This document shows, one piece after another, positions 2,750-23,932 of a stretch of DNA of 60,746 nt. Within the stretch, counting starts at the first letter, position 1. Each line of letters begins with the position of its first letter. The notes beneath the pieces are model-generated. The model did not search any database. It was not told where the DNA came from and worked only from the letters and a program-made list of their open reading frames with translations. Both the position numbers and the translations under genes were made by a program. The stretch is from Nitrospinota bacterium (GTDB lineage: Bacteria > Nitrospinota_A > UBA7883). Location: positions 1 through 60,746 of the forward strand of contig JAOUMU010000003.1 in NCBI GenBank assembly GCA_029881335.1, written 5' to 3'.

Positions 2750-3577
2750 TTACAAAGCCTTCAGCCTCCTGGATGGAGAAGCATATGAGTGCTTCTCTGA
2801 AGGATACTCCCCACCGCGCACTTCCCTGGTGTACTCCCGGAACGCATCGTGGGCCACTGTGGCCATATCGGCATATTCCTTTACAAATTTTGGCGCATGA
2901 CCTTCCGAAAGCCCCAGCATGTCGTTGGCCACCAGCACCTGCCCATCGCAATAAGGCCCGGCGCCTATACCAATGACCGGAATCTGAACCCTGGAGGACA
3001 CTTCCGCACCCAGATCCATAGGGACGCATTCCAGCACCAAGGAGAACGCGCCGGCGTCCTCCAGCCTGCGGGCGTCATCAATCAGCTTTCTTTCCGCCTC
3101 CAGCCCCTGGCCCTGCACCTTGAAACCGCCCAGCGCATGCACCGATTGAGGGGTGAGCCCAAGATGGCCCATGACAGGAATACCTGCCGCCACGAGCTCT
3201 TTAATGGAATCTATGAGCGACTCCACCCCTTCAAGTTTCACAGCTTCCGCTCCCTCGGCCACCAGCCTGCCGGCATTTTCCAGGGTCCGGCCAGCTCCCA
3301 GCCGGAACGACATGAAAGGCATATCCGCCACAACAAACGCCCGCCCGGTTCCCTTTCGCACAGCCCTGGTATGGTAAACCATATGATCCATTGTCACCTT
3401 CAGGGTGTTCTCCTCTCCCTGGAACGTCATTCCCAGCGAATCGCCCACCAGCACGATGTCCACCCCCGCCCGATCCGCCAGGGAGGCCATGGCAAAGTCA
3501 TATAAAGCAAGCGCGGCGATTTTCTTCCCCTCGGTCTTCATCTGGCGGATTGTAGTGACTGTAACTTTGTCTTTCAT
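2750..3577 (-). CDS. panB: 3-methyl-2-oxobutanoate hydroxymethyltransferase (ketopantoate hydroxymethyltransferase)
   Basis: 275-aa ORF. The N-terminus TIRQMKTEGKKIAALALYDFAMASLADRAGVDIVLVGDSLGM and the overall length are typical of PanB. Confidence 0.92.
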   Translation of the reverse strand: MKDKVTVTTIRQMKTEGKKIAALALYDFAMASLADRAGVDIVLVGDSLGMTFQGEENTLKVTMDHMVYHTRAVRKGTGRAFVVADMPFMSFRLGAGRTLENAGRLVAEGAEAVKLEGVESLIDSIKELVAAGIPVMGHLGLTPQSVHALGGFKVQGQGLEAERKLIDDARRLEDAGAFSLVLECVPMDLGAEVSSRVQIPVIGIGAGPYCDGQVLVANDMLGLSEGHAPKFVKEYADMATVAHDAFREYTREVRGGEYPSEKHSYASPSRRLKAL

Positions 3578-3864
3578 TGTCTTTCCCGGATATCAATTAA
3601 ATGCGGATGTCGGGAGGGGGGGGGAGCGCCAGGCATGAGGCCTGCGTCGAATATGGCTTTCTCTCCAACCGTCCCGGTCCGCGCTAATAAACGGATCCAA
3701 GCGGATACCTGGTGATTGTATCCTATTTTTAAATGATTTAAAAGATGTTCGCCCCGTCTCTCTCCATGCGCGTTTTATATGTCGCAAAGCGAGCTTCTCC
3801 TTGCTTTTCATCGCTGGGCGCCTTAAAGTATATGTCTTTTCTTACTTTTTGGAGGTTGCATTAC

Positions 3865-5013: not shown

Positions 5014-5892
5014 GGGCCACAGGCCAGGATTCGCAGGCAAAACTCCGACAGAGTTTTTGGCGGCCAGCTTTTGTCCGCGGTTGGCGTAGCAATAGGCGCA
5101 TCCGGCGGGGCAGGTATCATAGGCCCCTATGTCCATGCTGGCGTGGCATCCACACAGCCGCCGGGTGGGCCTCTTCGGCAGCCCCGAAAGGTCCACCCCC
5201 GTCACGGCAGCCATCCTTTCCCGGTCCACGCAACTTGAGGCGGGAATGTCGCCTCGGATATCCTCCTTCTCGCAACAGGCCGAAAGCCTTATTCCCCTCC
5301 TGGCGGCGATGGCCGCCATGGATGAGACCAAGGTTGGCAGATCTCCGGGGGCCGGGGCCAGAATTGGCGAACAGTTCTCTTCCATCAACCGCGGAAGCCG
5401 CCTGGAGAACTTGGCGTAGAAGTCGATAAACGATGTGACGCATTCATCTGTGGCGCCCTCCATCATGTCGGCCAGCCCGGCGAAATTCCTCAGATGCCAT
5501 TCGGCGTCCATCCCCTCGGCCAGCATCACCGGATCATAGCGCCACACCACGGCCTTGGGGCCATGCCGAAGGGCCAGGGCGTGGGCCGTCCGCACCGCTA
5601 TCTCGATCGGCGGCGAGCCAGGATCCACCCATTTGGGATATCCGATGATAGTGAACTGGAAATAAAAGTGGTACCCCATATCTGATAGCCTTGCGCAGTC
5701 ATCGAGCATTGGACGGTAATCACGCGACCAGAAGACGATTCCATCCACATCCTCAAGCCTGAGGGAGACTTCCCGCGTATGACCATCGAATGGATTTTTC
5801 ACCATGGCCTGGCCCCGCTCTATCTTGTCCATGAACCATCGAGAATGGAAGGCGGGGATATCTGTCCTGCGGGAAGCGGAAATTATGGCCAT
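4981..5892 (-). CDS. DUF1848 domain-containing protein (Cys-rich C-terminus with CX3CX2C)
   Basis: 303-aa ORF. N-terminus ISASRRTDIPAFHSRWF and C-terminal CGCHASMDIGAYDTCPAGCAYCYAN match my recollection of DUF1848. The 3' end overlaps the convergent PPIase gene by 33 nt. Confidence 0.78.
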   Translation of the reverse strand: MAIISASRRTDIPAFHSRWFMDKIERGQAMVKNPFDGHTREVSLRLEDVDGIVFWSRDYRPMLDDCARLSDMGYHFYFQFTIIGYPKWVDPGSPPIEIAVRTAHALALRHGPKAVVWRYDPVMLAEGMDAEWHLRNFAGLADMMEGATDECVTSFIDFYAKFSRRLPRLMEENCSPILAPAPGDLPTLVSSMAAIAARRGIRLSACCEKEDIRGDIPASSCVDRERMAAVTGVDLSGLPKRPTRRLCGCHASMDIGAYDTCPAGCAYCYANRGQKLAAKNSVGVLPANPGLWPLIRRVVSGSG

Positions 5893-5935
5893 ATCGCAAT
5901 GGGAACCATAGACACAATGGGAGCCATTGTCGCCA

Positions 5936-7639
5936 TCAGCTCTTCTGGGCGTCGGCCAGCGCTTCCCGGGCCCATTTCAGGGCAGCCTTGGCGGCCTCAC
6001 CATCGCCCACTCCGCCAGCCATCCGCGCCAGTTCCTCTATCTTCTCCTGCTCCCCCAGGATGCTGGCCTCTACATGGGTTCTTCCTTCCACCACCTTTTT
6101 GCCGATCCGCAGGTGCAGGTCCGCGTGGCGAGCCACCTGGGGCAGATGGGTGATGCAGAACACTTGACAACCCCGGGAAAGCTCCCTTAATTTCTTGCCA
6201 AGTGTGTCCGCCGTGGCGCCACCCATTCCGGAGTCTATCTCGTCAAACACCATCACCGCGGCGGGCTGGTCGCCGGGGAGCACTGTTTTGATGGCCAGCA
6301 TCAGCCGACTAATCTCCCCTCCGGAAGCAATGCGGGCAAGAGGCTTTTGCGGCTCCCCCGGATTTGCGCTGAATATAAACTCCATGCCTCGTATCCCCTC
6401 CGGGTCGAGCTTGGGCGCCCCCGCATCGCCGCCTTGAGCGGCAGGGGGACCGAAATCCGCGGCTAACATCGCCTTCTCCATGTTCAGGCTTTTCAGCTGG
6501 GCCACTGCCGCCGAGGTGAACGATGGCGCCCCGCTGGCGCGTTCTGCGTCCAACCTCCTCCCCAGCACCAAGGCCTCCTTATGGAGACGGTGGGCCTCCT
6601 CCCGCAGTTTGTCGATATTGTCACGCATAAACACCAGTTCATCGAGTTCGGTTTCCGCAGCTTGCCCAAACCGGAGGATATCTTCCACTCCACCGCCATA
6701 CTTTCGCTTGAGCCCCCGAATCAGATTCAGCCGGTCATCCACGCTCTCAAGCCTGGCCGGATCCATGTCCACTCCCGCCAGGTATCCGCGGATGGCCCCG
6801 GCTGCCTCATCAATCTGGAGCAAAGCTCCTTCCAGGGCGGACTTGGCAGGATTCAAATCACTGTCTATGGTGGACATTTTCTCCAAGACTCCCATAGCCT
6901 TGTTCAGGCCCAGGTTGGATGAGCCCTCCGGCTCATCCATCAGCGCCAATACCTGCGCCAGACCTTCCACCAATTTCTCCGCGTTGGCCAGCTTATGTTT
7001 CTCCGCCGCCCAGGTCTCCTCTTCGCCCGGCTTTAACTCCGCCCCGATTATTTCGGCCACCTGGTGCCGCAGGATGTCGATGCGGCGCTCCCGTTCCCGC
7101 TGGCCGCTTTTGGCGGTGTCCAGCTTTGCCTGGGCCTCCAGCCAATCGGCACGAGCCGTCTGGTATTGCGCCTTCAAGGGCAAAAGCCCCAGGAATTTGT
7201 CCAGGATCATCATATGGATGGAAGGGTCAAGCAGTGTCTGGCTGTCGTGCTGCCCCAGGATATCCACCAGCATGGCGCCTGCGGCCTTCACCTGGGCCAC
7301 CGTGGCGGAACAGCCATTTATGAAAGCGCGGTTCTTCCCTCCCCGGCTAAGCACCCGGCGCAAAAGCAGGCCCTCGGCGACATCGAATCCGTTCACCTCC
7401 AGCCAGGAGGGAAGCCCCGGCGCCCCGCGGGTATCGAACATGGCTTCCACCACCGCCTTCTCTTTTGAAGAGCGGATCATATCCTCGCTGCTTCTGCCGC
7501 CCAGGACCATCTCCAGCGCCCCGATGATGATAGACTTTCCGGCGCCGGTCTCCCCGGTGAAAGCGCAAAATCCGGGGGTGAACTCCAGCCGCACCTCGTC
7601 GATGATGGCGAAATCACTTACGTAAAGTTCCTTTAGCAT
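5936..7639 (-). CDS. recN: DNA repair protein RecN (SMC-like ATPase)
   Basis: 567-aa ORF. N-terminal Walker A FTGETGAGKSIIIGAL, long coiled-coil middle, C-terminal signature SGGEISRLMLAIK and Walker B VMVFDEIDSG. Confidence 0.93.
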   Translation of the reverse strand: MLKELYVSDFAIIDEVRLEFTPGFCAFTGETGAGKSIIIGALEMVLGGRSSEDMIRSSKEKAVVEAMFDTRGAPGLPSWLEVNGFDVAEGLLLRRVLSRGGKNRAFINGCSATVAQVKAAGAMLVDILGQHDSQTLLDPSIHMMILDKFLGLLPLKAQYQTARADWLEAQAKLDTAKSGQRERERRIDILRHQVAEIIGAELKPGEEETWAAEKHKLANAEKLVEGLAQVLALMDEPEGSSNLGLNKAMGVLEKMSTIDSDLNPAKSALEGALLQIDEAAGAIRGYLAGVDMDPARLESVDDRLNLIRGLKRKYGGGVEDILRFGQAAETELDELVFMRDNIDKLREEAHRLHKEALVLGRRLDAERASGAPSFTSAAVAQLKSLNMEKAMLAADFGPPAAQGGDAGAPKLDPEGIRGMEFIFSANPGEPQKPLARIASGGEISRLMLAIKTVLPGDQPAAVMVFDEIDSGMGGATADTLGKKLRELSRGCQVFCITHLPQVARHADLHLRIGKKVVEGRTHVEASILGEQEKIEELARMAGGVGDGEAAKAALKWAREALADAQKS

Positions 7640-7679
7640 GGCTTTTTGATATTAGTGTCTATTGTTTCCGGGCGCTCTG

Positions 7680-8537
7680 TCACTCCCCCCATCGCAGCTT
7701 GCCGCGAAGCAGGTTGTAGTAATCTGTATATGGCGACTGTATGATCCTGGTGATATCCTCTGACCGGCGGATGGTGATCCTGGATCTGGTGTCCAGCCCG
7801 AATACCACCTGCCCGTCCAGGGTGGCCTGAGCGGCGTTCCCCTTGGCCCTGGGCGTGACGGAGAGACGGATGGTTACATTGTCCGGGATGACGATGGGCC
7901 GTATCGACAAAGTCTGCGGACAAATGGGCGTGATGATTATGGCGTTTAGCGACGGATATACGATTGGACCGTTGGCGGAGAGGTTGTAGGCCGTGGAACC
8001 GGTGGGAGTGGAGATGATCAACCCATCGGAAGTGTAGTGGTTGAGCAGTTCGCCATTGACCTCCACCCGTACGGTGATCAACTGGCTGGTACTCCCCCGG
8101 TGGATAAGCACATCGTTTAGCGCCGTATATGAAACCCCCTTCTTGCCATCGAAGGATATTTCCGCCGCCAGCATTATCCGGTCCTCGTAGGTGAAGTCGC
8201 CATTGAGAACCTTTTCCAGCGCGGGAAACATATCCTCCAGGGTGAACTCCGTCAAGAAACCGAGGCTCCCCAGGTTTACGCCCAGCACCGGGGCCTTACG
8301 CCCTTCGAGCAGGCGGGATAGCCCTATCAAGGTTCCATCACCTCCGAGTACCACCACCAGGTCCGCCTCCTGGGCCAAGGCGGATTTTTCCATTCCCCCA
8401 TCCAGGCCCGCGGCGTCGGCGGTGTCCTGGTCCAGCAAGGGGGCGATTTTTCTCTCCCGCAGCCAACCGACCAGCCGGGCCACGGCTTCTGCGGCCAAGG
8501 GGCTTTGTGTGTTTGCAACGATTCCAATCTTTTCCAT
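7680..8537 (-). CDS. nadK: NAD(+) kinase
   Basis: ORF 7680..8594. The likely start is the ATG at 8537 (MEKIGIVAN). GGDGTLIG motif and TPTGSTAYNLSANGPIV motif. Confidence 0.9.
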   Translation of the reverse strand: MEKIGIVANTQSPLAAEAVARLVGWLRERKIAPLLDQDTADAAGLDGGMEKSALAQEADLVVVLGGDGTLIGLSRLLEGRKAPVLGVNLGSLGFLTEFTLEDMFPALEKVLNGDFTYEDRIMLAAEISFDGKKGVSYTALNDVLIHRGSTSQLITVRVEVNGELLNHYTSDGLIISTPTGSTAYNLSANGPIVYPSLNAIIITPICPQTLSIRPIVIPDNVTIRLSVTPRAKGNAAQATLDGQVVFGLDTRSRITIRRSEDITRIIQSPYTDYYNLLRGKLRWGE

Positions 8538-8666
8538 AAGCGCTTTCTTTACATGCCCAGGCTTCCAGCGCCAGTCCTTGTGGGGAATTGACAAGGCAGC
8601 CGGTTTGCCGCATAGTAATCAGGATCGAGTTTCTATTATACAAAACATAAGTTCCCAACGTTCAAT

Positions 8667-9461
8667 ATGTTTATTCCTTATTTTTCAAAAAGGGCCCATG
8701 GGGCCGCAGCCGGGCTGCCGCTAATATTATTTCTTCTGCTGTCAACCGGGGTGTCTGGTTGCGTGCAGACACACGTTGAGATGGTCACGGACGACTCGCG
8801 GCTTTTAGAGAGGGCCAACAATTTCTACGCCCGCCAGAGGTATAACCAGGCCACAGAATCATACCGGAAGGTGATGGATGAATACCCCGATTCCAAGTAC
8901 AGAAAAGTGGCCGTCATTGGCCTGGCCGATTCCCTTTACAAGGAGGGCCAGTTCGATGAGGCAAATCTGTACTATGAGCGGTTCGTGGAGATGTATCCAC
9001 TGGATGAATTGACTCCCCGGGCGCTTTTCTATTACGGCATGTGCTACATGATGCTCACCAGCACGCCGGACCGGAGCCAGAAACAGACCAGATTGGCCAT
9101 ACAGATGTTTGATGGATTCCTCACCAGATACCCGGATCACATCCTGGCTCCCACCGCGGCCTGGAACAAGGAGCAGATGGAGGCCATGCTGCTGCAGAGC
9201 AAGCTGGACGTGGCGCGGTTTTACTTCAACACCTACAAGAGCACAGCCGCCATTGATCGGCTAAAGGAATATTTAAGCAATAATCCAAAGTCGCCCGACA
9301 CCCCGGAGGCTTTGTTCATGCTGGGAGAGAGCTTTAGACGGAAGCAGTCTTATAGAAAGGCCGCGGAGGTGTTCACCGTGCTGATAGGTGACCACCCGAA
9401 TGACGAATGGGCCAAAAAAGCAAGGGAGTCCGCCGCCAGGCTGACCGTAAAATCCAACTAA
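8667..9461 (+). CDS. bamD: outer membrane protein assembly factor BamD-like TPR lipoprotein
   Basis: 264-aa ORF. Lipoprotein signal ending LLSTGVSGC. TPR-like repeats (YPDSKYRKVAVIGLADSLYKEGQFDEA ... YPDHILAP) are typical of BamD/YfiO. Confidence 0.72.
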   Translation: MFIPYFSKRAHGAAAGLPLILFLLLSTGVSGCVQTHVEMVTDDSRLLERANNFYARQRYNQATESYRKVMDEYPDSKYRKVAVIGLADSLYKEGQFDEANLYYERFVEMYPLDELTPRALFYYGMCYMMLTSTPDRSQKQTRLAIQMFDGFLTRYPDHILAPTAAWNKEQMEAMLLQSKLDVARFYFNTYKSTAAIDRLKEYLSNNPKSPDTPEALFMLGESFRRKQSYRKAAEVFTVLIGDHPNDEWAKKARESAARLTVKSN

Positions 9462-14426: not shown

Positions 14427-15647
14427 ATGAATATCCTGCCCCTGGCTTATCGCAACATCTGGCGGCGCAAGCTGCGCGCGGTCACCACTATAGGCGCGAT
14501 GGCGTTCGCCGGGGCTATCATGATCTTCTACTCCTCGCTGATGTTGGGGATGCTGGAGGCGCTGGAGCGAAACCTTATCATTATGAACATGGGGGACGCG
14601 CAGATACACAAGGAAGGCTACCGTAGCGACCCGGACCTGTACACAAGGATTGATGGATATGAAAAGATTCTCCAGGATCTCGAAGCCCTAGGTTTCAAGG
14701 CCTCCCCCAGGCTGTTCGGCTTCGGGCTGGTGGCCCACGAGCAAAATTCGGCCGGTGTCTCCATCATGGGAGTTGACATAGAGCGGGAGAAATCCGTCAC
14801 CCAGACATACAAGCACCTCTCCTCCGGCGTCTGGCTGGACGACAGCGATCCCAACGGAGTGGTCCTTGGCAGAAAACTGGCCAAAATCCTGAACGTGCGA
14901 CAGGGAGATGAACTGGTGCTGGTGAGCCAGGCGGCGGATGGCTCCATGGCCAACGACCTGTACCAGGTCCGCGGTGTGCTAAAGGGTGTGGGAGACGCGG
15001 TGGACAGGGGCTCCCTGTTTATGACGCAGCAGGCCCTGCGCGATTTCATGTACATCCCGGATGGGGTCCACGAGATCGTAGTCCTGCGCAATGACAGGAA
15101 TGAGCCTTTGGACGAGGCGATGGAGCAGATAATTCAGGTGGCGGGCGGAAACGAGGCAAAAAGCTGGAAGCAGCTACAGCCGCTAATGGCCAGCCTCATG
15201 GAAGTTTCCGACGCCAGCTTGATAGTGATGGTGCTGATCATGTACGCCGCCGTGGGAATGGTGTCGCTAAACGCCATGCTGATGAGCGTCTTCGAGCGGA
15301 TTCGGGAATTCGGAATAATGAAAGCCCTTGGCGTGTCACCGTTGCAGGTCATGGCCGTAGTGGTCCTGGAAGCGGCCATACAGGTGACAATCGCATGCGC
15401 CCTGGCCATGGCGGCAGGGATCCCTCTCTCCATGTATTTCGAAACTCATGGAATCAACTTCTCCGCCCTGGGAGAGGGTGTAAGCCTAGGAGGGGTCACC
15501 TGGGATCCGACCATCTTCTGCCATCTCACCACTCGGGCCATTGTCACTCCCTTGGTCACCCTGGTGGTGATAGTACTCCTGGCGGTGATATATCCCGGCA
15601 TTAAGGCCGCGGTGATCAGACCTGTGGAAGCGATCCACCATATATGA
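14427..15647 (+). CDS. ABC transporter permease, FtsX/MacB/LolE-like
   Basis: 406-aa ORF. N-terminal LAYRNIWRRKLRA, large periplasmic domain, C-terminal FtsX-type 3-TM bundle (RIREFGIMKALGVSP). Confidence 0.88.
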   Translation: MNILPLAYRNIWRRKLRAVTTIGAMAFAGAIMIFYSSLMLGMLEALERNLIIMNMGDAQIHKEGYRSDPDLYTRIDGYEKILQDLEALGFKASPRLFGFGLVAHEQNSAGVSIMGVDIEREKSVTQTYKHLSSGVWLDDSDPNGVVLGRKLAKILNVRQGDELVLVSQAADGSMANDLYQVRGVLKGVGDAVDRGSLFMTQQALRDFMYIPDGVHEIVVLRNDRNEPLDEAMEQIIQVAGGNEAKSWKQLQPLMASLMEVSDASLIVMVLIMYAAVGMVSLNAMLMSVFERIREFGIMKALGVSPLQVMAVVVLEAAIQVTIACALAMAAGIPLSMYFETHGINFSALGEGVSLGGVTWDPTIFCHLTTRAIVTPLVTLVVIVLLAVIYPGIKAAVIRPVEAIHHI

Positions 15648-15666
15648 GACAGGAGCGGGAGGTAAA

Positions 15667-16908
15667 ATGTTAGTGAAGCTGGCCTGGCGAAGTCTTTGGC
15701 GGCGCAAACGCAGGACGTTCATCACCTGCTTCACCGTCGCAGGCGGGATATTGCTCTCTGTGGTATTTACCGGCTCCGGCGATTACACCTACACACAGAT
15801 CATAGACACCAGCGCCACCATGGGCCTGGGGCACATAACGGTGGAGCCGAAAGGGTACAACGACATCCCCACACTCCAGAAGAGGATGAAAAACACATCT
15901 TTGGTCCGAGAAACGGCGCTGAATATCCCCAGGGTCACGGCGGCCGCCGAGCGGATTACGGGGATGGCCATGTTCGCCAGCGCGGCAAAAAGCGTGGGGG
16001 GTATTTTCTTCGCGGTGGATCCGGCCCATGAAACCGCCAAGATAAACACCTTCGTCCGCGCCATGGTGGAAGGCGAGATGCCGCCAGACGCCGATGGGCG
16101 CAAGATCGTGATCGGGGCCAAAATGGCGGAAAAGCTTAAGATCGGCCTGGGCAAGAAACTGGTCTACACAATGACCGATGTGGATGGGGAAATCGTCAGC
16201 GAAGTGGGGCGCGTATCGGGCATATTCAAAACAGGCGTCGAAGAGGTGGATGGCGCGTTTGCCCTCATACCCATAAACCGCATGCGCAAGGTGCTCAAAT
16301 ACGCGCCGGACGAGGCCACCATGGTGGCGGTGTTTATCGATGACCAACGAAGAGTGGACGGGGTGGGCGGCCTTATCGCCTCCGCCCTGGGAAACGATAG
16401 CCTTGAGGTGCTCAACTGGAAGACCACCCAAAAAGAGGTCTCCGGAATGATCAAGGTGGACCGGAGCGGAAACTATCTGTCCCAGTTTCTGGTGGGGCTC
16501 CTTATCGCGGCAGGGATCCTGAACACCATCTTCATGAGCGTGCTGGAACGCCAGCGGGAATTCGGGGTGATGCTGGCTGTAGGATTGAAGCCTGGCTCGC
16601 TGTTCAGGCTGGTGGTTCTGGAATCGCTTTTTATCGCGATAGTGGGCTTGATAATGGGGATCATCCTTACCGCTCCATTCTTTTATTACCTCTATTATCA
16701 AGGGCTGGATCTGCGGCAATTTGCGGACAACATGGAAGGATACGCCGTTGGTGGGACCGTGGTGGATCCAATTATGAAAATCCGTTTGTTCAAGGAGAGT
16801 GCCATCGCCATCCTGATTGGTGTGTTCGGTTTGACGATCTTGGCCGGATTGTACCCAGCCTGGAGAGCCGGCCGACAGGCGCCTGTGGAGAGCCTGAAAA
16901 CCATATGA
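15667..16908 (+). CDS. ABC transporter permease, FtsX/MacB/LolC-like (second copy)
   Basis: 413-aa ORF. LAWRSLWRRKRRT start, periplasmic domain, RQREFGVMLAVGLKP FtsX motif. Confidence 0.88.
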   Translation: MLVKLAWRSLWRRKRRTFITCFTVAGGILLSVVFTGSGDYTYTQIIDTSATMGLGHITVEPKGYNDIPTLQKRMKNTSLVRETALNIPRVTAAAERITGMAMFASAAKSVGGIFFAVDPAHETAKINTFVRAMVEGEMPPDADGRKIVIGAKMAEKLKIGLGKKLVYTMTDVDGEIVSEVGRVSGIFKTGVEEVDGAFALIPINRMRKVLKYAPDEATMVAVFIDDQRRVDGVGGLIASALGNDSLEVLNWKTTQKEVSGMIKVDRSGNYLSQFLVGLLIAAGILNTIFMSVLERQREFGVMLAVGLKPGSLFRLVVLESLFIAIVGLIMGIILTAPFFYYLYYQGLDLRQFADNMEGYAVGGTVVDPIMKIRLFKESAIAILIGVFGLTILAGLYPAWRAGRQAPVESLKTI

Positions 16909-17654
16909 GCAATGCAAGCCAGGGCAAGGTGTGGCAGGATCCGCGACAGGCGGCAAGTTACCTGGCTCATGCCCGAGGGGCCATCCCCCTTGCCGCGGAG
17001 CAGCTGCGACTGGCTGTGGGCCTGGCGGAAACCATGGCGACGAAGGTGGAGAGAATCCTGGACCTGGGGTGCGGTGATGGCGTGATGGGCATGGCCATGG
17101 TGGAAAGATGGCCCGGCGCCACTTTAACCCTGGCCGACTTTTCAGATACAATGTTGACAGCCGCCAGCCAAAGAGCGGAGGCGGCGGGAGTGGACGCGAA
17201 CCTGGTCAATCTCGACTATTCCGATCCTTCATGGCCAAGCCTGGTGTCCGGGCGTGGTTCGTTCGACCTGGTGGTGTCCGGTTTTTCCATCCACCATCAG
17301 ACAGGAGGGCGGAAGGAGGAAGTCTACCAAGAGGTGTTCGGTCTGCTGACGACGGGGGGGGTGTTCCTGAATCTGGATAACGTATCCTCCCCCACCGAAA
17401 AGCTGGCCCGGTTTTTTGAACTAGACTTTGTGGACGCGCTGGTTTCCGAAAGAGTCCACAAGGGGCTGGCGGCGGACCGGGAAGCGATATTTGGCGAATG
17501 GTGGACGCGACGAAAAGAGGATCTTGCCTGCTGTTCGCCATTGGAGGATCAGCTGGGGTGGTTGCGCGATATCGGCTTTGAAAACGTTGATTGTTATTTC
17601 AAGTATCTTGAATTCGCGCTGTTCGGCGGAAGCAGGCCGATGGCAGGTATATGA
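16905..17654 (+). CDS. class I SAM-dependent methyltransferase
   Basis: 249-aa ORF. ATGA overlap with the upstream permease. Motif I ILDLGCGDGVMG; post-I LADFSDTML. Confidence 0.84.
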   Translation: MSNASQGKVWQDPRQAASYLAHARGAIPLAAEQLRLAVGLAETMATKVERILDLGCGDGVMGMAMVERWPGATLTLADFSDTMLTAASQRAEAAGVDANLVNLDYSDPSWPSLVSGRGSFDLVVSGFSIHHQTGGRKEEVYQEVFGLLTTGGVFLNLDNVSSPTEKLARFFELDFVDALVSERVHKGLAADREAIFGEWWTRRKEDLACCSPLEDQLGWLRDIGFENVDCYFKYLEFALFGGSRPMAGI

Positions 17655-17671
17655 CAGGAAAGTAGTCACAT

Positions 17672-18196
17672 ATGAAGTTTGGGGAGTTTTACATTCAGAC
17701 CGCTATCATGGCAGGCATCGCCTTGGTCCTGGTGGCGATAGGTTACTTGAAAGGGGACGGGCAGCATATAAAAGGGCTTCAATCCGGGCTTGGTATGATT
17801 GTGCCCACCTTGCCGCTGATCCTGGCTGCGTTTATTGTGGCCGGATTGATGCAAGCGCTGATTCCAAAGGATGTGGTGGTTCGATGGCTGGGGGCCGACG
17901 CCGGACTGCGCGGAATTGCCGTGGGCGCCATGGCCGGCGCCTTCACCCCTGGCGGGCCGTTCACCAGCTTTCCCATAGCCGCCGGACTGGTGAAAGCGGG
18001 CGCCTCCATCGGGCCCGTGGTGGCTTTTCTTTCCGGATGGCTGTTGTTGGGTGTCACAAAGCTGCCATTGGAGGTTGGATTTGTGGGTTGGCAGGTGACT
18101 CTGGCGCGGGTAGGGTCCACCTTTTTTGTCCCATTTCTTGCCGGATGGATCGCGCAGACGCTGTTCTCCAGGCTCGGCACGGGGGTGGCCCAATGA
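17672..18196 (+). CDS. small polytopic membrane protein, half-size permease (ArsP_1/PF03773-like)
   Basis: 174-aa ORF, strongly hydrophobic, with GAFTPGGPFTSFPIAAGL-type motif. The overlapping ORFs 17428..18297(+) and 17666..18226(-) look non-coding. Confidence 0.62.
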   Translation: MKFGEFYIQTAIMAGIALVLVAIGYLKGDGQHIKGLQSGLGMIVPTLPLILAAFIVAGLMQALIPKDVVVRWLGADAGLRGIAVGAMAGAFTPGGPFTSFPIAAGLVKAGASIGPVVAFLSGWLLLGVTKLPLEVGFVGWQVTLARVGSTFFVPFLAGWIAQTLFSRLGTGVAQ

Positions 18197-18287
18197 TCCA
18201 ATTATGGCCCCCAACATTGCGACCACACGATATAATGAGCGATAGGATTTGTATTACGATACTCTCATATTTACATAGCCAAGGAGA

Positions 18288-19052
18288 ATGGAAGTGAGAT
18301 CAGCGATATTTATCTCGGCGTTGGCGTTGGCTCTTTGCGTCCAGCCCGCTCTGGCCCAGACGGCGATTGTGTATATCCAGGCGGGGGATAACCTGCGCGC
18401 TAAATTCGACAACAAAGGAGCGTTGGAGCAGTATCGCAAGGCGCTAGAGCAGAATCCCGAAAGTGTGGTGGCGCAAACCAGACTGAGCCAGGCCCTGGTG
18501 GATAATGGCGAGGATCTGGATTCGAAAGAGTCGGAAAAGTACTATACCGAGGCCATGAACGTGGCAAAACAGGTGGTGGAGGGCAATCCATCCTTGGGCG
18601 AGGGGCACTACCTGCTGGCGCTGGCCACCGGCAAGCTGGCGCTGTTCCGCGGTGGAAAGGAAAAGGTGAGGCTCTCCCGGGAAGTGGAACAAAGCGGCGT
18701 GAAGGCGCTGGGACTGGACCCAAAACACTCCCGTGGGCACATTCTGATGGGCGTTTACTACAGGGAGATAGCGAACCTGAACTGGGCGCTGAAAATGTTC
18801 GCCAACACATTTTTCGGCGGTCTGCCAAAGGGGACAAATGAAGACGCGATCCTGGAGCTGAACAAGGCGTTGGAGCTGGATCCGACGTCGATTCGCGCTT
18901 GGTTCGAACTTGGTAAAACCCACGAGGTCATGGGCGATGACGAAGCTGCGGCCAAGGAATACAGAAGCGCCATTAACCTGCCCCTCACCGACCATCTGGA
19001 CGCTAGATTTATCGCCGAATCAAAACTCGGGTTACAACGGGTGGGCGAATAA
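18288..19052 (+). CDS. secreted TPR-repeat protein
   Basis: 254-aa ORF. Signal peptide ALALALCVQPALAQ. TPR-like ALEQYRKALEQNPES ... LNKALELDPTS ... AAKEYRSAINL. A GTG at 18294 is an alternative start. Confidence 0.68.
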   Translation: MEVRSAIFISALALALCVQPALAQTAIVYIQAGDNLRAKFDNKGALEQYRKALEQNPESVVAQTRLSQALVDNGEDLDSKESEKYYTEAMNVAKQVVEGNPSLGEGHYLLALATGKLALFRGGKEKVRLSREVEQSGVKALGLDPKHSRGHILMGVYYREIANLNWALKMFANTFFGGLPKGTNEDAILELNKALELDPTSIRAWFELGKTHEVMGDDEAAAKEYRSAINLPLTDHLDARFIAESKLGLQRVGE

Positions 19053-19056
19053 TACG

Positions 19057-19803
19057 ATGAGTCAAGGTCATACAGGGAAGGAGAATAAGCTTAGGGAGCC
19101 TGTGCAAATTGGCGGCGCAATCGTTCGGCTGGAGAAAGTGTCCCGGGTGTACCAACAGGGGAAAGTGGAAGTGAAAGCGGTGGACGATCTTTCCCTGATT
19201 ATAAATAAAGGAGAGTTCACGGTGATCAGCGGCCCTTCCGGAAGTGGCAAGACCACCACCTTGAACATGATCGGCGCTCTGGATATCCCCAATTCCGGGA
19301 CAGTGGAACTGGAAGGTAGAAACCTGGGAACCCTGTCACGGACCCAGCTTTCCGAGTTGCGCCGTGACAGGATTGGTTTCGTTTTCCAAGCCTACAACCT
19401 GGCGCCCGTGCTGACGGCATATGAAAACGCCGAGTTTGTGCTGGCCCTTCAGGGCGTTCCCGCCGCCCGGCGCAGGGAGCGGACCATGAAGGTTCTCGAC
19501 GAAGTAGGGCTAAATGGGCTGGAGGACCGACGGCCGGACGAAATGTCTGGCGGGCAACAGCAAAGAGTGGCCATCGCCCGGGCCATCTGCCCCAGGCCGG
19601 CCATCGTGCTGGCGGACGAGCCCACCGCCAATGTGGACTCTCACACTGCGGAATCGATTCTGACTCTGATGCAGCAGCTTAACCAGACGGATGGGATCAC
19701 TTTCCTTTTCTCTACCCATGATCCTCAGGTGATGGAACGGGCTCGCAGGATCATCACCATGCGTGACGGGAAAGTGTTTGATGACATTACCAAGTCATTT
19801 TAG
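19057..19803 (+). CDS. ABC transporter ATP-binding protein (LolD/MacB-type)
   Basis: 3' part of ORF 18910..19803, with ATG at 19057. Walker A GPSGSGKTT, Q-loop, signature MSGGQQQRVAIARA, Walker B IVLADEPT, H-loop STHD. Confidence 0.92.
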   Translation: MSQGHTGKENKLREPVQIGGAIVRLEKVSRVYQQGKVEVKAVDDLSLIINKGEFTVISGPSGSGKTTTLNMIGALDIPNSGTVELEGRNLGTLSRTQLSELRRDRIGFVFQAYNLAPVLTAYENAEFVLALQGVPAARRRERTMKVLDEVGLNGLEDRRPDEMSGGQQQRVAIARAICPRPAIVLADEPTANVDSHTAESILTLMQQLNQTDGITFLFSTHDPQVMERARRIITMRDGKVFDDITKSF

Positions 19804-21040
19804 CGCAAGCTGGACTCTGCTGGCTGCGGGAATAGTCATTCTTCTTTTTGCCACTCCCTGCTTTGGGTTCTATGAAAGCCAGGAAGATGAGACACACCTC
19901 TCCTTGCGCGCATCCATCCGCGCATTGGGGGTGATGACGGAAAACCCGGAAGCCCCGCAGCTGTTCAAAAGCCAGAACGACTACGTAGCGGGAGGAATGA
20001 CCAGGCTGGAATTTTCCGGCGCCTGGGGTGGCTGGCTCTCCATGGAACTCAACGCGTACGCCCTGGGGTATTACAACTCCGCGGGCGCCCAGGGATCCTC
20101 CTTTGTGAAACTACAATCGGCGGATCGCAGCGGCGCTCCGGAGATTGGACTATTTAAATCCATCGACTCCAAAGGCGAAATGGCGTTGGACTGGGCCAAC
20201 CTGACAGCAACCCTTGGCGGAGCGGATCTTTCAATCGGTCGCCAGCCTGTAAACCTGGCCAGCACACTATACTTCACCCCCAACGATTTTTTCGCCCCCT
20301 TCGCCGCCGATGTGTTCTATCGGGTGTACAAGGCGGGGGTGGACGCTGTCCGGCTGGAAGCGGGGCTGGGCGCCTTGACCCAGCTGACACTTCTGACAGT
20401 GGCTGGATATGGTCATGACCAGGACACCATAAGCGGATTCGAAAACACTCCGGACAAGGATCGCACTTCATATCTTTGTCGGATATCCACTGTGGCGTTC
20501 GACTACGAGTTCATGGCTCTGGGAGGAAAAGTCCGCAGGATGATGGTGTACGGCGGATCATTTCAAGGGACGTTTTTCGACTGGCTTGGAGTCCGGGCGG
20601 AGGGGCACTGGGCAGAGCGGATGGATAATAAAGAAGCGAAGCTTGAGTGGACGCTGGAGCTGGAGCGAAGATTCCCCAGTTCGCTGGATCTGCGTCTGGC
20701 CGTCTACCACCATGGCGCTGGCGTGGAGTATGTGGATGAATACACCAAATACCTGCTTTCCGAGGGACTTGAGAGCCCATACATCGCGCGTTGGTATGCG
20801 GGGATGGGAGCGTCGTATGAGTTCACACCGCTATGGACCGGGACAGCCCTGGCGCTGATGAACCTGGTGGATGGTTCATCCACCCTCAGCGTGAACGCTG
20901 TCTACTCCCTCTCCGACGAGGGGGAGATGTTTATGGGTCTTTCCCTCCCTGCGGGCGACGCGCCCAAGGGATTTATATTAAAAAGCGAGATGGGCGCCAG
21001 ACCCAGGGCCGCCAGCGTGGAAGCGCGATACTATTTTTAG
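19781..21040 (+). CDS. putative outer-membrane beta-barrel protein
   Basis: ORF 19763..21040 (GTG), first ATG at 19781. Signal-like WTLLAAGIVILLFATPCFG. Alternating hydrophobic pattern. C-terminus ...SVEARYYF ends in an aromatic residue, as OMP barrels typically do. Confidence 0.55.
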   Translation: MTLPSHFSASWTLLAAGIVILLFATPCFGFYESQEDETHLSLRASIRALGVMTENPEAPQLFKSQNDYVAGGMTRLEFSGAWGGWLSMELNAYALGYYNSAGAQGSSFVKLQSADRSGAPEIGLFKSIDSKGEMALDWANLTATLGGADLSIGRQPVNLASTLYFTPNDFFAPFAADVFYRVYKAGVDAVRLEAGLGALTQLTLLTVAGYGHDQDTISGFENTPDKDRTSYLCRISTVAFDYEFMALGGKVRRMMVYGGSFQGTFFDWLGVRAEGHWAERMDNKEAKLEWTLELERRFPSSLDLRLAVYHHGAGVEYVDEYTKYLLSEGLESPYIARWYAGMGASYEFTPLWTGTALALMNLVDGSSTLSVNAVYSLSDEGEMFMGLSLPAGDAPKGFILKSEMGARPRAASVEARYYF

Positions 21041-21172
21041 CCGACCATTGGGGCGCTGGCGATCGGGGCGAATGTCTCGGCCCCGGTTGACACATCGGCC
21101 ATTGTGGCGCCAGAATCAAAGGATATTACTGGGGAACGTATTCAAACCGGCGCCAAGCCAGAAAGAGGGCCC

Positions 21173-22060
21173 ATGCTGGAACCTTTGCGAGCCATTCCTG
21201 GCCCGGACTTTCTCTGGTATTTCCTGGGTGCGCTGGTTGTCACCTGGTTCCTTGTCCGGCGCTGGGCCTATAACGACGGCTCGCTGGATCACATGCCCCC
21301 CCAGATGACCAGGGTGGATCCTTACTCCATCGCCGCCCTGCGCGGGGGCGCCGCGGAAACTGTGAAGGTGGCCATATACGACCTGGAGCAGCAAGGGTTG
21401 ATAAAGCTTTCCGGGGAAGGAGCGGAAATCAGGATGAGCGCCGAGGCGGACCCCAGCCGTCCACTGAACATAGTCGCCGCGGAAACCCTCGATTATATTT
21501 CCGGCAACGATTCCCCTCGCCAGATGTTCGCCGATAGCGCGTTCATAAGCAAGGTGGAGAGTCATCTTTCCTCCCACTACGACGATCTGAAACGCAAACA
21601 TCTGATGCGCGATGAAGATATGCAGTCCGCCGCTTGGATGGCGTTCATCGTCGGGGTTCTTCTTCTGGAGGGCATCGGAGGCGCCAAGATGTATTTGGGA
21701 GTGGTGAACAGCAAACCGGTTCTTTTTCTGGCTCTGCTCCTTCTCATAACCCCTGTCGCTCTCTGGTTCGCCGCCGATCCGTTGGGCAGGATCAGCGCCC
21801 TGGGCCACAAACACATCTCCTCCCTCAAAAGCCACTTTGGCTGGGTGAAGGATTCCCTTTCGAAGGAGAAGGAGACGGACAACATGAATGTGGCTTTCGC
21901 CCTGGCGGTGTTCGGCTCTGGAGCGCTAGCCGGAGGACCGCTGTACGACCTGTATAACAAGGCGGCGCAGCCCTTGAACCAGGGGGGAAGCAGCAGTGGA
22001 TGTAGCGGGTGTAGTGGGTGCGGTGGTGGATGTGGCGGTGGATGTGGAGGGTGTGGATGA
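21173..22060 (+). CDS. TIGR04222-like membrane protein with C-terminal Gly/Ser-Cys repeat tail
   Basis: ORF 21104..22060 (GTG). ATG at 21173 follows AGAGGG. N-terminal GPDFLWYFL TM helix, DPYSIAALRGG motif, three further TM helices. The last 25 aa are GGSSSGCSGCSGCGGGCGGGCGGCG (7 Cys). Confidence 0.75.
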   Translation: MLEPLRAIPGPDFLWYFLGALVVTWFLVRRWAYNDGSLDHMPPQMTRVDPYSIAALRGGAAETVKVAIYDLEQQGLIKLSGEGAEIRMSAEADPSRPLNIVAAETLDYISGNDSPRQMFADSAFISKVESHLSSHYDDLKRKHLMRDEDMQSAAWMAFIVGVLLLEGIGGAKMYLGVVNSKPVLFLALLLLITPVALWFAADPLGRISALGHKHISSLKSHFGWVKDSLSKEKETDNMNVAFALAVFGSGALAGGPLYDLYNKAAQPLNQGGSSSGCSGCSGCGGGCGGGCGGCG

Positions 22061-23190
22061 GGTTTCCCTGGGATAGCGGATTATTTCCGTGGCGACGAAA
22101 GTTCCCCAGGTACAAGCGGGGGCTGCTTCTCCAATGGCATATCACTAACCGGTGTCAGCTACGATGCGCACACTGCTACCAGGATGAATATGGTGGCGGC
22201 GAACTTGGCCTTGACGACCTGATGGGGATTCTTGAGCAATACAAGGCTCTGCTCGGCTCGCTTGGAGGGCATAGCCACTCCGGCCGTCGCGGCCTCTTGG
22301 GGAATCGCGGCCATGTCACTATCACCGGTGGGGAGCCCTTCGCCAGGGAGGATATCTGGGAGCTTTTAGATGCGCTGGTGGCGCATCGGGACTTGTTCGG
22401 ATTTGCCATCCTGACCAATGGTTATGACATGGACATCGCCATGGCCAGGCGTTTGGCCCGGCTGGGGCCCAGGTTTGCACAGGTTAGCTTGGAGGGGACG
22501 CAGGAAATTCACGACCGTATCCGGGGCGAAGGAGATTATGATCGTGTGGTGAAAGCATTGAAGGTGATGATTCGGGGCGGATTGCAGACAATGATCTCTT
22601 TTACCGCCCACTCGAAAAACTATCGGCAGTTTCCCGATGTGGCTGCACGGGGCAGGCTGCTGGGCGTGGGGAAGGTGTGGACAGACCGGATGGTCCCTTG
22701 TGGAGGCGCGGCTACAAGTAATCAGGATGTCAAGCCGCTGGATATGGATCAGACCCGTGAGTATCTTCAGATAATTGATATGGAAAGGCGCAAGGCGTCC
22801 AGGAGTTTTTTCCAGGGAACTCAGGTGGGGGGGGATCGGGCGCTGCAGTTTCTGGCCGAAGGAGGCAGACCGTACCGCTGCCAGGCTGGGGAGGGATTGA
22901 TCACCATCATGCCGGATGGGAGCCTGTACCCTTGCCGCAGGATGCCGGAAGCCGTGGGCAACGTGATGGAGACACCCCTGGTGGAGCTTTACCACGGCGC
23001 GGAGCTGTTTAAAAGTTTACGGGACGAGAACAAGATAAGCCAAGGGTGCGAGAGATGCCTGTATCGACGGTTCTGCAGGGGAGGCCTGAAATGTATGTCC
23101 CATGCGGCATTGGGGGATCCGTTTTTGGCGGATCCTGGATGCCCGTTGGCCGGGGCGAGCTCTCAAAAAGAAATGAACACTTATTTGTGA
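22057..23190 (+). CDS. radical SAM enzyme with C-terminal SPASM domain
   Basis: ORF 22018..23190. ATG at 22057 overlaps the upstream TGA (ATGA). CQLRCAHC (CX3CX2C) and ITGGEPF. SPASM pattern CQAGEGLITIMPDGSLYPC ... CERCLYRRFCRGGLKC ... GC. Confidence 0.88.
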   Translation: MRFPWDSGLFPWRRKFPRYKRGLLLQWHITNRCQLRCAHCYQDEYGGGELGLDDLMGILEQYKALLGSLGGHSHSGRRGLLGNRGHVTITGGEPFAREDIWELLDALVAHRDLFGFAILTNGYDMDIAMARRLARLGPRFAQVSLEGTQEIHDRIRGEGDYDRVVKALKVMIRGGLQTMISFTAHSKNYRQFPDVAARGRLLGVGKVWTDRMVPCGGAATSNQDVKPLDMDQTREYLQIIDMERRKASRSFFQGTQVGGDRALQFLAEGGRPYRCQAGEGLITIMPDGSLYPCRRMPEAVGNVMETPLVELYHGAELFKSLRDENKISQGCERCLYRRFCRGGLKCMSHAALGDPFLADPGCPLAGASSQKEMNTYL

Positions 23191-23197
23191 GACAGCC

Positions 23198-23932
23198 ATG
23201 AACGAGTTTGAGAATCTGGATAAGACGAAACTTTCAGCGGCGGAGAGGAAGGCGGTGGAAAGGTTTTGCTGGGAAGCGCGAGAGGGACTGGGGGAGAAAC
23301 TGTTGTCGATCACGTTGTATGGCAGCGCCGCCCGGAATGACTACCATCCTGGGCGCAGTGATATCAATATTCTGGTGTTGACCTCCACATTGAGTTTTCC
23401 CGCCATGCAGACGCTGCTGGACCCTGTGTCCAGGGGATTGCGGGTGGGCATTCATCCTTTGTTGATGACCGATGGTGATCTTCACTCCTCCACGGATATC
23501 TTCCCTGTTAAGTTTCTTTCGATGAAGGAGAGCCACTACACCCTGTGGGGGGAGGATCCTCTCTCCGGGCTTGTCATCGAGCGGGAGCATTTGCGGCTGC
23601 GGTGCGAGCAGGAAATCATGAACCTTCTGCTTCGGCTACGAAGGTACTATATCTATCATGGCGGGTGGAACCTGGAGGAAAAGATCTCCGGCAGCGTCAC
23701 CGGTTTTCTGGAAAATCTGCGAGTGGCTCTCTCCCTGGGGCAGGAAGCCATCCTCACCAGGGATCAGACCTATGAGGCCGCGGAAAAACATGGCATCTCC
23801 TCGTCCACCCTGGCCCGAGTGGTGGCAGTGAAAAACCAATCGCCCCCCAGAGAGGAACTGGAGACCATATATAGTGAGTACCTGGTGGCGGTGGAAAGGG
23901 CGGCCAAGATTGTTGATAGCGGCGAAGTGTGA
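23198..23932 (+). CDS. Pol-beta superfamily nucleotidyltransferase domain protein
   Basis: 244-aa ORF, 7 nt after the rSAM gene. LYGSAARNDYHPGRSDINILVL (GS ... D.D NTase motif). Confidence 0.68.
   Translation: MNEFENLDKTKLSAAERKAVERFCWEAREGLGEKLLSITLYGSAARNDYHPGRSDINILVLTSTLSFPAMQTLLDPVSRGLRVGIHPLLMTDGDLHSSTDIFPVKFLSMKESHYTLWGEDPLSGLVIEREHLRLRCEQEIMNLLLRLRRYYIYHGGWNLEEKISGSVTGFLENLRVALSLGQEAILTRDQTYEAAEKHGISSSTLARVVAVKNQSPPREELETIYSEYLVAVERAAKIVDSGEV

Follow-up and report, generated by a model that had tools for sequence, protein, structure and literature searches.

The window analysed here is a 60,746-nucleotide (nt) stretch of DNA from a Nitrospinota bacterium (contig JAOUMU010000003.1), and its forward strand carries a module of three genes (21173–23932), read as one operon, which encode a TIGR04222 membrane protein, a radical S-adenosylmethionine (rSAM) enzyme with a SPASM domain, and a nucleotidyltransferase (NTase)-like protein. 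Comparison across genomes showed a firm genetic link between this rSAM family and membrane proteins that have only a C-terminal tail of Cys, Gly and Ser in common. The interpretation that is on the whole favoured, and that is considered fairly probable, is that the enzyme is an O2-independent alternative to the MNIO (DUF692) enzymes and that the tail would be converted into a membrane-anchored, probably metal-binding thiooxazole tail.

The carrier of the tail is a protein of 295 amino acids (aa) (21173–22060, + strand) read from the ATG at 21173, and an identical 295-aa call is found on the contig records. It scores 93.6 bits on the NCBIfam hidden Markov model (HMM) TIGR04222, whose curated cutoff is 43, over profile positions 3–229 of 229. 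The original prediction, made from the sequence alone, had named this family for a polytopic protein with the motifs GPDFLWYFL (residues 10–18) and DPYSIAALRGG (residues 49–59), and the assignment proved right: the GPxFL transmembrane (TM) helix, the DPYxIAxLRGG module and the low-complexity Cys/Gly/Ser C-terminus are all present, with near-invariant tail columns in an alignment of 30 sequences. The tail, GGSSSGCSGCSGCGGGCGGGCGGCG, is formed by the last 25 residues (21983–22057, + strand). It had been described as (Gly/Ser-Cys)x7; the tail and its coordinates stand, but there are six Cys rather than seven, each with a Gly before it. GGCG occurs in it three times, which fits the Gly-Gly-Cys/Sec-Gly required in the target of SbtM. 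In the AlphaFold2 (AF2) model residues 271–295 are disordered, with a predicted local distance difference test score (pLDDT) below 50. The nucleotides that encode the tail repeat imperfectly, and in frame, in units of 9 and 12 nt, and the possibility that the tail is an open reading frame (ORF) artefact of repetitive DNA was rejected, as the frame is held across phyla with differing codon usage. Moreover, no comparable tail was found among the 1205 control-locus ORFs of at least 60 aa.

The TGA of the carrier gene (22058–22060) overlaps the ATG of the rSAM gene (22057–22059), giving the 4-nt ATGA overlap at 22057–22060 that had been read earlier, and a GGAGG Shine–Dalgarno sequence for the rSAM gene (22046–22050, + strand) lies within the last tail codons, 6 nt 5′ of the ATG. 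The overlap, together with a Shine–Dalgarno sequence inside the tail codons, indicates that the translation of the two genes is coupled. After the rSAM stop, 7 nt follow before the gene of the 244-aa NTase-like protein (23198–23932), which is separated by a gap of 118 nt from a Sel1-repeat gene.

The rSAM/SPASM enzyme, the proposed tail maturase (22057–23190, + strand), is composed of 377 aa and has no N-terminal RRE domain, only 24 residues preceding the rSAM core. It matches Pfam Radical_SAM (PF04055) with 70.4 bits against a gathering score of 29.5, and SPASM (PF13186) with 31.6 bits against 21.5. The CX3CX2C motif is CQLRCAHC (C33, C37 and C40; 22153–22176, + strand), and the SPASM region (22879–23142, + strand) contains seven Cys in the order C275-x12-G-x4-C293, then C331-xx-C334-x5-C340-x5-C346 and, further on, C362, that is to say, with the spacing CX2CX5CX5C and not CX2CX5CX3C. 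All ten Cys are invariant among 29 homologues, which together with the two Pfam scores bears out the motifs that had been claimed for this gene, and the seven SPASM Cys are, judged from sequence, sufficient for two auxiliary 4Fe-4S clusters. More than 100 homologues with 49–82% identity exist in public data, the nearest being proteins of Nitrospinota metagenome-assembled genomes (MAGs) with 82% and 68% identity. No equivalog model of NCBIfam release 20 reaches its cutoff for this enzyme. The best sub-threshold matches are the ACGX-system rSAM TIGR04340 (131 bits, cutoff 400), TIGR04053 (127 bits, cutoff 395) and SbtM TIGR04082 (113 bits, cutoff 350), and SbtM is among the top three sub-threshold matches for the window enzyme and its relatives alike. 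The homology with SbtM-type enzymes is full-length at about 26% identity, compared with 37–45% inside its own family, and on sequence grounds the window enzyme represents a family separate from SbtM, not a member of it. The nearest solved structures by sequence include PqqE, CteB (5wgg) and SkfB (6efn).

The association of enzyme and tail was examined in a forward scan with the 29-sequence rSAM alignment, in which each GTDB species was represented by one genome and which yielded 80 loci. In each locus all ORFs were considered, and a tail was recognised by two or more Cys and a Gly/Ser/Cys content of 60% or more in the last 30 residues. An adjacent tail ORF was present in 36 of the 51 loci whose rSAM scored at least about 180 bits against the window enzyme. 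After one locus whose tail was cut by the locus edge (L009) had been counted in and an uninformative one (L007) left out, a tail-bearing membrane gene adjoins the rSAM in 37 of 50 informative species loci, as against 0 of 29 loci with more distant rSAM/SPASM enzymes. For 36/49 versus 0/29, Fisher's test gives p = 1.3e-11, and chance adjacency of the two genes was rejected at this level (p about 1e-11). The tail ORF usually lies immediately upstream, overlapping or a few nt away, and sometimes downstream or convergent, with varying order and strand. The same pairing was found in three of three further loci, namely a Desulfomonile tiedjei MAG, a 9-Mb Aminicenantes chromosome and a Pirellulaceae contig. 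The rSAM family occurs in Nitrospinota, Thiotrichaceae/Thiomargarita, Anaerolineales, Planctomycetota, Syntrophobacteraceae and Verrucomicrobiota, and also in Armatimonadota, Nitrosomonadales, Clostridium, many Ruminococcus/Oscillospiraceae, Electrothrix and an archaeal MAG.

The tail carriers themselves belong to different protein families. TIGR04222 carriers, with tails ending in ...CGGGCGGCG, occur at 21 loci; Ruminococcus has DUF2207 carriers of 550–700 aa (ending in ...SSCSSCSSCGGGGAD) and carriers of 270–340 aa with a TPM domain (...CSSCSSCGSGGSSSF); a zinc-ribbon fusion is found at locus L033 (...CGGCGGCGGCGD), and a 155-aa carrier without any family match in Electrothrix (L035, ...CGGGGGGCGGCGGG). 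Only a membrane anchor followed by the Cys/Gly/Ser tail is common to these families, and therefore the tail is what the enzyme appears to need; this is the strongest argument for the tail as substrate. Among the small ORFs of the loci, no further candidate is conserved. In the rSAM-linked TIGR04222 tails, Gly stands before 104 of 106 Cys.

Some individual loci may be described here. Ruminococcus loci L043–L052 have a fixed set of three genes in common, for a zinc-ribbon protein (about 545 aa), a protein with a TPM domain and a Ser/Cys tail (...GSGGSSSF), and the rSAM, for example at L046 (3522–5165, 5155–5979 and 5983–6966). In Candidatus Thiomargarita nelsonii (L012:5031–6633) the carrier is broken up into three ORFs and the ORF of the rSAM is cut short, owing either to frameshifts (pseudogenes) or to errors in the assembly. 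A pair of TIGR04222 tail genes in tandem is found in L030 with an rSAM (7060–7998 and 8098–8976) and in L183 with an MNIO (5453–6391 and 6333–7259). The tail-less rSAM loci, with scores of 181–389 bits, are L008, L013, L015, L016, L020, L036, L037, L042, L047, L049, L051, L054 and L055; L020 has instead a 95-aa Cys-rich ORF (3355–3642) located 2.3 kb upstream.

It has been reported in a 2025 survey (PMC12452194) that Cys-tail TIGR04222 proteins are frequent neighbours of MNIO enzymes and are proposed to be their substrates, and that about one third of the genomes with such genes have no MNIO; rSAM, SPASM and nucleotidyltransferase are not mentioned in that paper. The association was also viewed from the side of the carrier, by a degenerate DNA scan of the genome collection for DPYxIAxLRGG, which gave 61 loci with a complete Cys-tail TIGR04222 gene, and their neighbours were classed with HMMs built from the neighbour genes. 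In 47 of the 61 loci the adjacent maturase is an MNIO on the same strand with a gap of about 0, in 7 it is an rSAM/SPASM enzyme, in none are both adjacent, and the 7 loci with neither are mostly tiles cut beside the gene. The MNIO neighbours were confirmed as PF05114 (275 bits). Conversely, the HMMs detected neither an MNIO nor a PME-type 2 gene in the 60.7-kb window or in the 80 rSAM loci. Two of the seven rSAM enzymes belong to the SbtM family itself, with 509 bits (L114) and 476 bits (L191) on TIGR04082, although both are without about 195 N-terminal residues of the model; their genes follow immediately after Cys-tail TIGR04222 genes, in one MAG of Oligoflexia (L114:1666–2697, − strand) and one of Kineosporiaceae (L191:6125–7132, − strand). 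To our knowledge, SbtM has been described only with selenopeptides, in Geobacter and Desulfobacteria. That is to say, the slot beside the TIGR04222 tail gene is taken by an MNIO, an SbtM-family rSAM or a window-type rSAM, never by two together.

The tails at rSAM- and MNIO-linked loci are alike, with 5–6 Cys at a spacing of 2–3 residues and many ending in ...CGGGCGGCG(G/S). Furthermore, for 8 of 20 rSAM-linked TIGR04222 carriers the closest relative is an MNIO-linked one, with up to 48% identity, as between the carriers of L025 (rSAM-linked) and L144 (MNIO-type), and this interleaving of the carriers implies that the maturase has been swapped repeatedly in evolution. From these sequence comparisons, MNIO and rSAM look like alternative occupants of one functional slot. 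All strict anaerobes in the sample use the rSAM.

The chemistry known for the other occupants suggests what the window enzyme may do. In its discoverer's account (PMC9204691), SbtM is an rSAM/SPASM enzyme that acts on the Gly-Cys or Gly-Sec of a conserved GGUG motif; a thio(seleno)oxazole is formed, the mass falls by 4 Da and a chromophore at 304 nm arises. The enzyme takes H from the β-carbon of Cys, and the thiol stays alkylatable. The same heterocycle, 5-thiooxazole, is installed by bufferin-type MNIO enzymes (PMC12452194, PMC12668002). The original prediction took the tail to be the membrane-tethered substrate of the neighbouring enzyme, and comparative genomics supports this strongly, through the 37/50 versus 0/29 loci and the resulting enrichment of rSAM neighbours beside Cys tails, the tail as the sole common feature, and MNIO and SbtM in the same slot; it is now held with considerable confidence.

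A mechanism can be proposed on this basis. The tail is the last part of the carrier to leave the ribosome, and the coupled cytoplasmic rSAM would make direct contact with the nascent or finished tail, as there is neither an RRE domain in the enzyme nor a leader peptide on the carrier. Being sensitive to O2, the cytoplasmic enzyme would act before any translocation, with which the tight translational coupling agrees. With 5′-deoxyadenosyl radicals and its two auxiliary clusters, the enzyme would oxidise each Gly-Cys unit, and the likeliest product would be 5-thiooxazole (−4 Da, two SAM per Cys), the reaction known for SbtM on GG(C/U)G and for MNIO on bufferins; by analogy with these systems, a thiooxazole is given a little less than an even chance. 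If the proposal holds, the rSAM would therefore be the O2-independent replacement for the O2-dependent MNIO, providing a route for organisms or conditions without O2. The product would stay on the membrane protein as a tail of several heterocycles, which could act as a multidentate ligand of soft, copper-type metals, although a role in metal binding is put forward tentatively; the NTase-like protein would be an accessory of the carrier. It is conceivable, if somewhat doubtful, that the unrelated membrane families TIGR04222, DUF2207 and TPM carry poly-thiooxazole tails, in other words anchored metallophore arrays on full-length proteins instead of released peptides, made by three interchangeable maturases and, for TIGR04222 only, accompanied by a non-canonical NTase-like partner.

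Other products have to be weighed against the thiooxazole. SPASM rSAM enzymes that act on Cys-rich peptides typically form thioethers, and an enzyme of the sactisynthase or ranthipeptide type would link the S of Cys to the α- or β-carbon of a nearby Gly or Ser and create a rigid, thioether-laddered tail; CteB and SkfB among the nearest solved structures are in line with this, as are weak matches to the models of PapB (60 bits, cutoff 340), StsB (68 bits, cutoff 625) and AlbA. However, every thioether-maturase model stays far under its cutoff, the MNIO and SbtM enzymes that share the slot do not form thioethers, the enzyme is without an RRE domain, and the strict Gly-Cys context fits the site of SbtM, so that a thioether ladder is rated unlikely. 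Still less probable is another radical reaction on the tail, such as the conversion of Cys to formylglycine or a thioaldehyde as in the anaerobic sulfatase-maturating enzymes (anSME), epimerisation, or C-terminal decarboxylation as in MftC. SbtM chemistry is itself thought to pass through an anSME-like thioaldehyde intermediate, according to PMC9204691, and MftC, PqqE and NirJ/Ahb-type models give sub-threshold matches of about 70–100 bits, but none of these families reaches its cutoff and there is no sulfatase in the neighbourhood. The varying tail termini among loci (...CG, ...GGD, ...SSSF) also argue against a reaction specific to the C-terminal residue. As candidate identities of the enzyme, anSME was rejected, no anSME model being among the best 25 NCBIfam matches and no sulfatase Pfam family lying within 10 kb on either side; heme or NirJ/Ahb-type, PQQ and mycofactocin maturases were rejected too, as their models remain far under cutoff and their cognate genes are not present. 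The enzyme does not belong to a family with a known unrelated substrate. The original prediction had looked for thioether or formylglycine formation; Cys modification as such is retained, while thiooxazole, as made by SbtM and MNIO, is rated likelier than either.

It would also be conceivable that the tail is not a substrate at all, but an unmodified metal- or Fe-S-binding appendage, with the rSAM or MNIO acting on another molecule or drawing metal or electrons from the tail. Cys-rich tails are able to bind metal unmodified, one third of the TIGR04222 genomes is without MNIO (PMC12452194), and in 13 of the 50 rSAM family loci the nearest 5 kb or so contain no tail gene. Against it, three unrelated types of Cys-modifying maturase alternate beside the tail gene, usually overlapping it or a few nt away, the carriers are alike in nothing but the tail, and no alternative small ORF is conserved across the loci; the tail as a mere appendage is accordingly considered very improbable. 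The preferred reading, a tail oxidised to thiooxazoles by an O2-independent enzyme, has several points to answer in its turn, beginning with the same 13 tail-less loci. The identity of about 26% with SbtM and the score of 113 bits against a cutoff of 350 mean that SbtM chemistry is not guaranteed; the ACGX-system and TIGR04053 models, neither of which has a function named in NCBIfam, slightly outscore SbtM; the sactisynthases CteB and SkfB are among the nearest solved relatives; and the chemistry of the rSAM family is deduced from sequence, while the metal-binding role comes solely from the analogy with bufferins. MNIO-type loci also occur in an uncultured Clostridia MAG (L147) and in Thermoanaerobaculia (L092, L107, L142, L163 and L175), lineages that are usually regarded as anaerobic, which makes the division between aerobes and anaerobes a tendency and not a rule. 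Finally, published topology predictions place TIGR04222 tails in the periplasm (PMC12452194), so that modification would be needed before translocation.

The system can be compared with several known ones. The TIGR04222–MNIO clusters (PMC12452194) have the same carrier family, a Cys/Gly/Ser tail often ending in ...CGGGCGGCG, an NTase-like neighbour and a maturase gene directly after the carrier, whereas the window lacks both the MNIO and the PME-type 2 partner and has an rSAM/SPASM enzyme in the slot; the MNIO modification of TIGR04222 tails is itself only a proposal in that paper. SbtM/SbtMa (Lewis et al. 2021, as summarised in PMC9204691) is likewise an rSAM/SPASM system, with a GG(C/U)G target like the GGCG repeats of the window; however, the window enzyme lacks the N-terminal region of about 195 aa of canonical SbtM, and its substrate would be no free peptide but the terminal part of a 295-aa membrane protein, and it contains no selenocysteine. 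The bufferins and oxazolins, which are MNIO-made, copper-binding 5-thiooxazole peptides of the ribosomally synthesised and post-translationally modified class, offer a proposed analogy in the conversion of Gly-flanked Cys into a metal-binding heterocycle before export. Bufferins are peptides or proteins that occur in soluble form in the periplasm; they carry Sec signals and are made by O2-dependent iron enzymes with DUF2063 partners, whereas the window has an rSAM as the enzyme and an NTase-like partner, and its product would be anchored in the membrane. The ACGX system is named for a Cys-Gly repeat peptide; the window enzyme is far under the cutoff of its rSAM model (TIGR04340, an NCBIfam hypothetical equivalog) and no ACGX peptide is present. 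With the sactipeptide and ranthipeptide maturases (CteB, SkfB, AlbA and PapB) it shares a SPASM domain with two auxiliary clusters and an adjacent Cys-rich substrate, but the window has no RRE, leader peptide, protease or exporter, the substrate would not be released, and the scores are far under the cutoffs. A precedent for the replacement of one maturase type by another is given by anSME and the formylglycine-generating enzyme FGE, an rSAM/SPASM enzyme and an O2-dependent metalloenzyme that carry out the same protein Cys oxidation; their target and product differ from those proposed here, and the window contains no sulfatase.

As for what is already known, TIGR04222 Cys tails as putative MNIO substrates (2025), the thiooxazoles of SbtM (2021) and MNIO-made thiooxazole metallophores have all been described. 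The statement of the original prediction that no function was described for the gene pair thus holds for the pairing with an rSAM, but not for the tails, which had already been proposed as MNIO substrates (PMC12452194). In the literature searched and in NCBIfam release 20 no description was found of this rSAM/SPASM family as a dedicated neighbour of Cys tails, of SbtM-type enzymes beside TIGR04222, of the mutual exclusivity with MNIO, or of the DUF2207 and TPM carriers and the NTase-like partner; nor did the searches find a paper that joins ACGX or DUF2207 with radical SAM.

An O2-independent rSAM could explain some of the TIGR04222 genomes without MNIO, especially those of strict anaerobes, among them Ruminococcus, Clostridium, Syntrophobacter, Desulfomonile and Anaerolineales. 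The recognised unit appears to be the tail and not the TIGR04222 domain, which extends the system to DUF2207 and TPM, large families with unexplained Gly-rich C-termini. If poly-thiooxazole tails and their three maturases prove true, they would constitute an aerobic and anaerobic enzyme pair for a new and widespread protein modification. With three unrelated enzyme types on one kind of substrate, it can be asked directly whether the chemistries of rSAM and MNIO arrive at one heterocycle, and whether it is a full-length membrane protein rather than a peptide that is modified; the tail-type sequence GGCGGGCGGCG is suggested as a synthetic substrate. There is also a gap in annotation, as an rSAM family with more than 100 homologues at 49% identity or more has no equivalog in NCBIfam release 20.

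The third conserved member of the module, the 244-aa NTase-fold protein (23198–23932, + strand), is a further uncharacterised component. It matches PF01909 (NTP_transf_2) marginally, with 22.4 bits against a gathering score of 21, and it matches an HMM built solely from genes of MNIO-type TIGR04222 loci with E = 1e-36. In a profile search of the PDB the family hits the N-terminal domain of the ANT(3″)(9) adenylyltransferase (E = 3e-7), whereas the single-sequence PDB search gave only chance annexin matches, and the single-sequence AF2 model, with a pLDDT of 46, was unusable. The NTase motif G42-S43-x10-S54-D55-I56-N57 (23321–23368, + strand) has invariant G42 and S54 and near-invariant S43, D55 and N57 in the alignment, the Asn (N57) replacing the second metal-binding Asp of the canonical hG[GS]-x9-13-D-h-[DE] motif. 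For the protein, an altered nucleotidyltransferase and a scaffold without catalytic activity are both conceivable.

Of the 61 loci found through the carrier, 30 have a member of the family (25 with MNIO and 3 with rSAM, one of these SbtM-type), and so have at least 9 loci of the forward scan, with varying gene order, for example at L142:3224–3949, L025:7839–8573 and L206:5137–5874; a 245-aa third gene also occurs in two of the three further loci. Hence it accompanies all three maturase types, MNIO, SbtM-type and window-type rSAM, and none was found beside DUF2207 or TPM carriers. This distribution suggests that the NTase-like protein belongs to the TIGR04222 carrier and not to any one maturase.

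The carrier was modelled with AF2 from the 30-sequence alignment (pLDDT 84, predicted TM-score (pTM) 0.75). TM helix 1 (residues 10–33; 21200–21271, + strand) holds GPDFLWYFL, of which G10, P11, F13 and L14 do not vary in the alignments of the family. It is followed by a soluble helix-helix-hairpin module (residues 49–88; 21317–21436, + strand) with DPYSIAALRGG, consisting of helices 50–58 and 60–73 and strands 77–80 and 85–88, in which D49, A54, R57 and G59 are invariant and which seems to resemble a winged helix. After this module the model has a helical bundle, then the TM2–TM3 helical hairpin (residues 148–200, with helices 148–178 and 184–200; 21614–21772, + strand; Kyte–Doolittle peaks of 1.83 and 2.58) and two short helices. 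A fourth, marginal hydrophobic segment, VAFALAVFGSGALAGGPLY (residues 237–264; 21881–21964, + strand), reaches 1.53 on the Kyte–Doolittle scale, has near-invariant F247 and G248, and is modelled as helix 237–251, a kink and helix 256–264. Positive-inside charge counts predict that the domain of about 120 aa that includes the residue 49–88 module is cytoplasmic, together with the 202–239 loop; since the fourth segment is marginal, the carrier tail could be on either side of the membrane. The TPM and DUF2207 carriers consist of a signal or TM helix, an ecto-domain, a TM helix, a K/R-rich stretch and the tail, and their tails are predicted from sequence to be cytoplasmic. A Foldseek search of the carrier model against the PDB gave nothing under E = 1, and a single-sequence homologue search with the tail-less carrier gave 3 matches, the word index being unsuited to so divergent a family.

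Upstream of the operon, the 132-nt gap contains a promoter-like site, TTGACA-18-CAGAAT (21087–21116, + strand), which agrees with the consensus at 10 of 12 positions; it is plausible by position but a weak candidate, as such sites are no commoner in the region than in shuffled sequence. Further upstream, at about 14900–21040, there is a separate-looking cluster with a TP_0789/LolA-like protein, two MacB-type FtsX permeases, a TPR protein, an ABC ATPase, a class I methyltransferase (16905–17654) and a half-size permease of the ArsP_1 family (17672–18196). It also has a 419-aa protein without a Pfam match, whose C-terminus, ...ARYYF, resembles an outer-membrane β-barrel signal as in outer-membrane proteins, and the cluster is kept in another Nitrospinota contig (L003) with 82% identity.

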